Origin: Eledone cirrhosa | Taxonomy: Eukaryota | DNA length: 64,000 nt | Assembly (NCBI GenBank): GCA_964016885.1 | Contig: OZ024751.1 | Coordinates: forward strand, 42,904,001-42,968,000 | Direction of reading: 5' to 3' | Shown: in pieces, positions 50,967 to 51,164 of the stretch | Layout of the letters: each line of letters starts with the position of its first letter | How positions within the stretch are numbered: position 1 is the stretch's first letter | Notes under the pieces: model-generated | Seen by the model: only the letters and a program-made list of their open reading frames with translations | What the model was told of the DNA's origin: nothing | The model's database searches: none | Program-made: the position numbers and the translations under genes

Positions 50967-51164
50967 GGAACGAGTAGGACCCCGACGGCTGAGCTCAAGC
51001 CGTTTCGACGGCTAATTCTCGAGTTAGTTCAGAATTAGCCGTCGAAACGGCTTGAGCTCAGCCGTCGGGGTCCTACTCGTTCCTATTACCCACTCTACTA
51101 CCCTAAGTATTGAGTACTTTGGTGCGTTATGGTCCACCTGGTTCCTTACCACATTTCCTTCGTT
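50967..51164 (+). mobile_element. family A fold-back element (opposite orientation)
   Basis: Palindrome centred on gacggctaattct...agaattagccgtc, then GAAAcggcttgagctcagccgTCggggtc and the tail. Confidence 0.8.

Follow-up and report, generated by a model that had tools for sequence, protein, structure and literature searches.

Penelope-like elements (PLEs) form the sister group of telomerase reverse transcriptases. Inverted, 5'-truncated copies bearing a tail on one side only are known in these elements (PMC8557442), and the origin of inverted ends and one-sided tails is called open in two papers (PMC8557442, PMC11167929). In the Hydra clade (Craig et al. 2021, PMC8557442), units are generally shorter than 3 kb, the CCHH motif is absent from the endonuclease, DKG is changed to DKT, and RWK is found. 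The PLE protein Poseidon_Ac has been reported to cut and extend both target strands in vitro, using two internal start sites which bound the tail, and is predicted to act as a dimer (Frangieh et al. 2024, PMC11167929). For inverted pseudo-LTR (pLTR) palindromes, an antisense template and self-priming were inferred (Arkhipova et al. 2013, PMC3846280). PLE hammerhead motifs lying 100-700 bp apart on opposite strands have been noted, and a U3-A8 core is one of the reported variants (Cervera and de la Pena 2014, PMC4209133). An internal promoter with an initiator has been documented within the pLTR of Drosophila virilis Penelope (PMC2377424). In L1, reverse transcription from both nicked strands, known as twin priming, leads to inversions (PMC4245944), and an untemplated 5' G in L1 inserts has been read as a copied cap (PMC9341517).

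The sequence analysed here, referred to as the window, is a stretch of 64,000 nt from Eledone cirrhosa (assembly GCA_964016885.1, OZ024751.1:42,904,001-42,968,000, forward strand). A preliminary description had assigned eight places in it to one family of half-ribozyme palindromes. One family is indeed found at all eight (5621, 16855, 20016, 21697, 31007, 41959, 44218 and 50967), flanked by (TA)n or a related microsatellite. Seven of the eight have the fold-back shape, with a different junction in each; as had been described, every one of the seven contains the GAAA, stem III and GUC half of a hammerhead ribozyme and lacks its 5' core. The copy at 16855, previously listed as a fragment, does belong to the family, but it too has two arms, which are non-overlapping, and is not a palindrome. 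The copy at 50967 is made up as listed below, element positions being counted from a putative transcription start (+1).

50859..50966, no strand: left flank, (TA)n passing into (GA)n
50967..51019, minus strand: tail-less arm, 53 nt, from element +58 (end site 1, base of stem I) back to about +6
51020..51025, no strand: junction filler between the 5' ends of both arms; its final two bases match parent -2/-1
51026..51163, plus strand: tail-bearing arm, 138 nt, from +1 (putative transcription start, in loop II) to +138 (end site 2)
51033..51083, plus strand: 3' half of a type I hammerhead, comprising stem II 3' strand, GAAA, stem III with palindromic loop, GUC and stem I 3' strand
51044-51047, plus strand: GAAA of the half-hammerhead
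51066, plus strand: predicted ribozyme cut after this position
51084..51163, plus strand: 80-nt tail between end sites 1 and 2, which runs on into 5' UTR and ORF in full-length units
51092..51115, plus strand: small bulged hairpin, 8 nt behind site 1, a candidate start signal; minimum free energy (MFE) structure in some variants only
51164..51200, no strand: right flank, (TA)n target

The other copies in the window, given without strand, are the following.

5621..5760: tail arm to about +15, tail-less arm from about +43
16855..16936: non-overlapping arms, the tail arm covering only about +92..+138 and the tail-less arm +33..+58
20016..20210: arms to +5 and +7, with a 10-nt locally templated insert at the junction
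21698..21810: two tail-less arms (+2/+7), the one clear exception in the sample to the presence of a single tail
31007..31193: tail arm to +2, tail-less arm from +9..+12
41959..42115: 6-nt microhomology joining stem II and stem III strands, a minor class (2/100)
44218..44480: old, diverged copy with a 67-nt junction filler

The copies had been described as folding back in or next to stem II; of the seven junctions in the window, five are located at a single position of loop II or just behind it, and only those of the 41959 and 5621 copies fall within stems. The tail-less arm of the 50967 copy abuts (GA)n (50937-50966), not (TA)n, an arrangement also seen at two other loci, L011 and L150.

Nine of the first 30 loci extend upstream into the body of an element, and full-length units were found starting from 316 genomic matches in which the tail runs into non-TA sequence. 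These longer copies lead into an intact element, in agreement with the suggestion that the hairpins are PLE ends. Full-length units measure 3.1-3.5 kb; some are arranged in tandem arrays with a period of 3,531-3,546 bp, in which each unit consists of repeat, tail and ORF, and the tandem or partially tandem units form pseudo-LTRs, as expected of PLEs. The open reading frame, of 718 aa, starts about 235 nt behind the hairpin start, and intact, nearly identical ORFs exist in the genome. It has no Pfam match and no PDB sequence match. BLASTP detected a weak match (E 3e-4) to an RVT_1/GIY-YIG element adjoining copies of the family, and 2,218 unnamed relatives were found among 7,998 candidates scored, the best being about 40% identical over the full length. 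Reading of the translation revealed YRDD and a C-terminal YIG-type motif, together with motifs of the Hydra clade: DKT, a CxCX5C linker, and CxxC and CxH flanking conserved E and N, with RWR in place of RWK. To judge by these motifs, the parent is an intact Penelope-like retrotransposon with motifs of the Hydra clade.

DKT, CxCX5C, CxxC with CxH, RW(K/R), a hammerhead in the repeat, (TA)n insertion, tandem units and an inverted truncated copy with a one-sided tail are all shared with the Hydra clade as described in PMC8557442. In contrast, the units exceed the 'generally <3 kb' given there, a length which is a tendency and not a strict criterion, and the tail has 80 nt against the 30-40 nt given for PLEs; the U3-A8 core, the loop II of about 45 nt and the prevalence of 140-nt hairpins among the copies also set this family apart. 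Arrays of nearly identical full-length units with mostly open ORFs are located at C1:91472000-91490900 (L236, L237), C1:437196500-437215400 (L238, L239) and C2:320548000-320557900 (L240). The array at C1:437.2 Mb begins with a short, inverted, tailed arm and is tail-less at its other end, which suggests recent activity and very long cDNAs. A different Penelope-type element, with RVT_1 and weak GIY-YIG matches, adjoins or sits inside copies of the family at L061, L063, L067 and L079.

The intact repeat encodes a type I hammerhead, for which self-cleavage is predicted: its unconstrained MFE fold has stems I-III with the core unpaired. Stem III has four pairs, and loop II, about 45 nt long, contains a self-complementary stretch. 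Rfam gave only microsatellite or hairpin noise in the window, and no hammerhead match in the intact repeat. Copies with the whole ribozyme do exist, as the preliminary description anticipated, and its recognition of half-hammerheads stands, but the CUGANGA core it assumed for the parent does not. The parent core is UUGANAA (U3-A8), with CUGAGAA in one subfamily; among 22 long copies, 18 have U3-A8 and 4 a C3-A8 mismatch. A CUGANGA parent was ruled out by genomic counts, as the true 5' half has 3,900 matches while CTGANGA upstream of the arm has 36, at scattered spacings. The long 'stem II' reported earlier is a palindrome created by the inversion; the real stem II has its 5' strand about 45 nt farther upstream, in a part missing from every window copy. 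Compared with the minimal PLE hammerheads of PMC4209133, the type I form, a long stem II with an extra base after the core, a palindromic loop 3 and the U3-A8 covariation are shared, whereas here stem III has only four pairs and loop II would hold a transcription start. One abundant subfamily has the C3-A8 mismatch (e.g. L002, L063, L173); cleavage is predicted to be impaired in it, yet it has spread widely.

In pattern searches of the 3.0-Gb genome, a 33-mer from the arm matched exactly at 20,034 places and its reversed control at 0; a word of the tail had 26,783 matches. At least 16,390 loci have both arms no more than 60 nt apart, a restriction on junction length which biases half of the hairpin sample toward short ends. 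The same pair of ends, joined to (TA)n, recurs in contigs from independent public sequencing runs, and an inversion is crossed by one contig, so the hairpins are not an assembly artefact. A sample selected by the tail only (n=104) was composed of 78 short hairpins, 8 long copies, 8 short copies with no inverted arm detected and 10 shorter pieces. From the fetched loci 147 hairpins were parsed; 47 picked on junction features were left out (23 selected for CTGANGA, 18 for G and 6 for ORF junctions) and 100 were kept, where L243, which underwent a later inverted duplication, is counted twice. At this locus (L243:600-3250) the duplication spans 800 bp and takes in part of an element arm together with the older hairpin that flanks it; three further hairpin elements separate the duplicates.

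Every insertion end corresponds to one of two fixed sites 80 nt apart: site 1 (+58), at the base of stem I, for the tail-less end, and site 2 (+138) for the tailed end. A tail is present on exactly one arm in 98 of the 100 short hairpins, the exceptions being the window copy at 21697 and a hairpin with an internally deleted tail, and in all 19 simple pairs among the long two-armed insertions; an inverted, 5'-truncated copy with a one-sided tail, characteristic of PLEs, is found here too. In the element, UAU directly follows both sites and matches the (TA)n target; target-site duplications are unreadable because the target is (TA)n. Behind each site, at a distance of 6-8 nt, there is a small bulged hairpin, alike in shape at both (at site 2 of full-length units the distance is 6 nt), the one at site 2 being the local MFE structure. 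Two internal start sites bounding the tail and an AT-rich target are found for Poseidon_Ac as well; that protein, however, belongs to another clade, and its sites lie in an AC-rich loop without homology to the target. In the main text of PMC11167929, neither the inverted arm nor a one-tail rule nor the 5' end of the RNA is connected with the two sites.

The hairpins are probably head-to-head copies of the first ~60 and ~140 nt of the transcript, produced by two separate reverse transcriptions primed from both cut strands of the (TA)n target. The enzyme, probably a dimer, would nick both target strands, so that each nicked strand primes one cDNA; on a single RNA, one subunit would begin synthesis at site 1 and its partner at site 2, and the cDNA of the second would displace that of the first. 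Both cDNAs would run off the capped 5' end of the RNA, acquiring an extra G or added A's, and host end-joining would link the two cDNA ends, leaving small trims, microhomologies and templated inserts. Because the sites also lie 58 and 138 nt behind +1, the enzyme would often prime at the head of the transcript, while priming in a downstream repeat would give the long two-armed insertions, with arms truncated independently. In L1 twin priming, the internal position at which the second primer anneals varies, and two pieces without overlap result; here, in contrast, neither site varies and the same 5' segment is usually copied into both cDNAs, which generates a palindrome. Both-strand reverse transcription and an untemplated G as copied cap would be features shared with L1 (PMC4245944, PMC9341517).

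A broader proposal, for and against which we see the case as evenly balanced, is that endonuclease-bearing PLEs normally integrate by two-ended priming, with two fixed sites used on a single RNA. One dimer would copy the same RNA onto each strand, so that inverted pLTRs, one-sided tails and cap-ended mini-hairpins would be products of one reaction, and the promoter would be placed inside the hammerhead so that the element's own transcripts cannot self-cleave.

Two-strand priming with the same 5' limit might instead involve a dimer which normally holds two RNAs of one source locus, one per site, an arrangement that needs no strand displacement and allows an extra G on both arms; we consider it unlikely. 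Subfamily haplotypes are concordant between arms in 66 of 68 hairpins, where random pairing predicts 49.5 discordant ones, although concordance of this kind is blind to the difference between one RNA and two RNAs of one source. A point variant is present on both arms in only 1 of 88 loci, so the arms were not homogenised later. Two-haplotype hairpins number 58 genome-wide against 27 for the mutation control. Eight of 30 TGG/TTG-discordant hairpins also differ at a second linked subfamily site and look like true chimeras, in favour of two RNAs; two of these eight break the one-tail rule (one is two-tailed, one tail-less), against 2/100 overall, so that events with two RNAs seem a looser exception. 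Two-template events thus occur but are rare, and one RNA primed twice is the simplest cause of the allele match and of the one-tail rule. An earlier working idea, that the arms usually derive from two different RNAs, was dropped as a rule in view of this concordance and of the few discordant loci; a variant seen on one arm in two loci turned out to be a recurrent point mutation.

The position of the 5' limit was determined by split alignment of the arm ends, in which two poly-T junctions were mis-scored as -9. In the 100 hairpins, about half of which came from patterns favouring short junctions, 153 of the 200 arm ends lie at -4 to +8 around one A in loop II, and 5 lie beyond -4. Breakpoints are therefore strongly non-uniform, as the preliminary description required, but they are clustered in loop II and not on the ribozyme stems, where it had placed them; its claim that the inversions arose independently holds, the junctions being nearly all different. 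By type, 18 junctions are blunt, 40 microhomologous (1-6 nt) and 42 filled, often with locally templated inserts, a mix expected of end-joining. In an independent run (X1), contig depth rises from 209,024 to 2,862,850 at the +1 position, a step of about 14-fold. The context of +1 is pyrimidine-pyrimidine-A, an initiator-like consensus, and a TATA-like word is found at -29 in some subfamilies only.

Genome-wide, G is found at -1 in 5,420 arms and A in 890, about a sixfold difference; it precedes the +1 A in 0 of 71 long copies and is, for this reason, non-parental. In the sample, the base at -1 is T in 29 cases, C in 17, G in 10 and A in 3, T and C being those supplied by the parent. The non-parental G is likely a cap signature, and from the DNA we infer that RNA polymerase II starts capped transcripts at the +1 A, within the ribozyme; since this A lies in loop II, transcripts starting there would be devoid of half of the ribozyme. 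Some junctions have long sense-strand T runs, corresponding to A's added at the cDNA end. Two loci, L088 and L148, have 16-18-nt A/T runs right at +1, which fits terminal A addition to a finished cDNA.

With two-strand priming retained, +1 could alternatively be a place in loop II, or at the base of the folded region of stem II, where the RNA breaks or the polymerase stalls, the G being an ordinary untemplated base or one that the other arm supplies. In the sample, about half of the G's (5/11) could come from the C at +5 of the opposite arm, arm ends do spread over -4..+8, and the TATA-like word varies between subfamilies. Nevertheless we regard this explanation as very improbable: the 5' limit is sharp and lies 35 nt from the stem II 5' strand, G outnumbers A although the window context has 34% GC, and five loci retrieved for this feature have G on both arms with 0, 1, 1, 2 and 6 nt between them. 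The documented initiator-containing promoter within the pLTR of D. virilis Penelope (PMC2377424) likewise speaks for a start site.

According to the preliminary description, nascent cDNA snaps back on ribozyme stems and self-primes the second strand, an idea already published for PLE palindromes (PMC3846280); such a snap-back could also use microhomology. The palindromes of that paper and the hairpins described here have in common a head-to-head inverted repeat, a tail on one end and TATA/Inr-like motifs in the pLTR; the arm lengths found here, however, argue for two separately primed cDNAs on sense RNA. In a fold-back of a cDNA primed at the tail, the second arm can start only downstream of the cDNA's own end. 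Of 98 one-tailed hairpins, the tail arm is the longer in 46, the tail-less arm in 33, and the two are equal in 13 and ambiguous in 6; 57 leave no room for a loop and are incompatible with fold-back, while 41 are geometrically compatible. Among 21 long insertions, picked for having two long arms, the tail-less arm reaches further 5' in 10, the tail arm in 7, with 2 equal and 2 undetermined, and the excess of the tail-less arm ranges from 14 nt to ~2.7 kb, one being a whole tandem array. The tail-less arm thus often holds sequence missing from the tail arm (57/98 short, 10/21 long). The alleles shared by the arms and the microhomologies at 40/100 junctions would suit self-priming, and the repeat shared by stems II and III is used in 2. 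In addition to the arm lengths, it is opposed by the non-overlapping arms of the window copy at 16855, by the G at -1 that both arms can show, and by the second arm stopping at a site which also ends long single arms, joined to (TA)n. Self-priming is contradicted as a general route, and its chance of explaining the hairpins is very small indeed; it could survive for a minority such as the window copy at 41959. The hairpins are Penelope-like insertions of known architecture, and the mechanism first suggested for them is wrong in the main.

That the hairpins are MITE-like units multiplying as such, by DNA transposition or by whole-hairpin retrotransposition, as their high copy number, terminal inverted arms and few recurrent junctions might suggest, is scarcely credible, and MITE-like re-amplification is not indicated, because the commonest recurrent junction is found in four subfamilies and in both tail polarities, while junctions are otherwise nearly all different, ends are asymmetric, arms track the subfamilies of the coding element and the parent is a retroelement, in place of a uniform unit with TIRs amplified whole.

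Literature searches, conducted outside subscription papers, found no paper that derives the inverted arms of PLEs from two-strand priming at two sites, and none with a cap signature at PLE inverted-arm junctions. Two-strand priming would, if true, explain how PLEs make inverted ends. The more than 16,000 loci are short natural records of the PLE integration reaction and provide unusually direct genomic evidence on its mechanism. The rules they follow (one tail, either arm longer, shared alleles, a common 5' limit with an extra G) rule out self-priming as the main route and show exactly which sites to mutate, and, intact and nearly identical ORFs being available, the model is testable in the existing in vitro system. 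For annotators, they are a warning that such hairpins are not MITEs.

A second hammerhead family inserted in (TA)n, with a canonical CUGANGA core, is present in the window at 16431-16630 and 50720-50860. Its copy at 16431-16630 has the full core on both arms, the junction just 5' of the core and a tail on one side only; that at 50720-50860 is a related single copy, located 100 bp left of the copy at 50967. Tandem arrays occupy positions 55175-59660 (period ~74 (37)), 8450-9980 (~500 bp) and 38900-41750 (~310 bp) of the window, and the word CTGATGA is found in every unit of the latter two.
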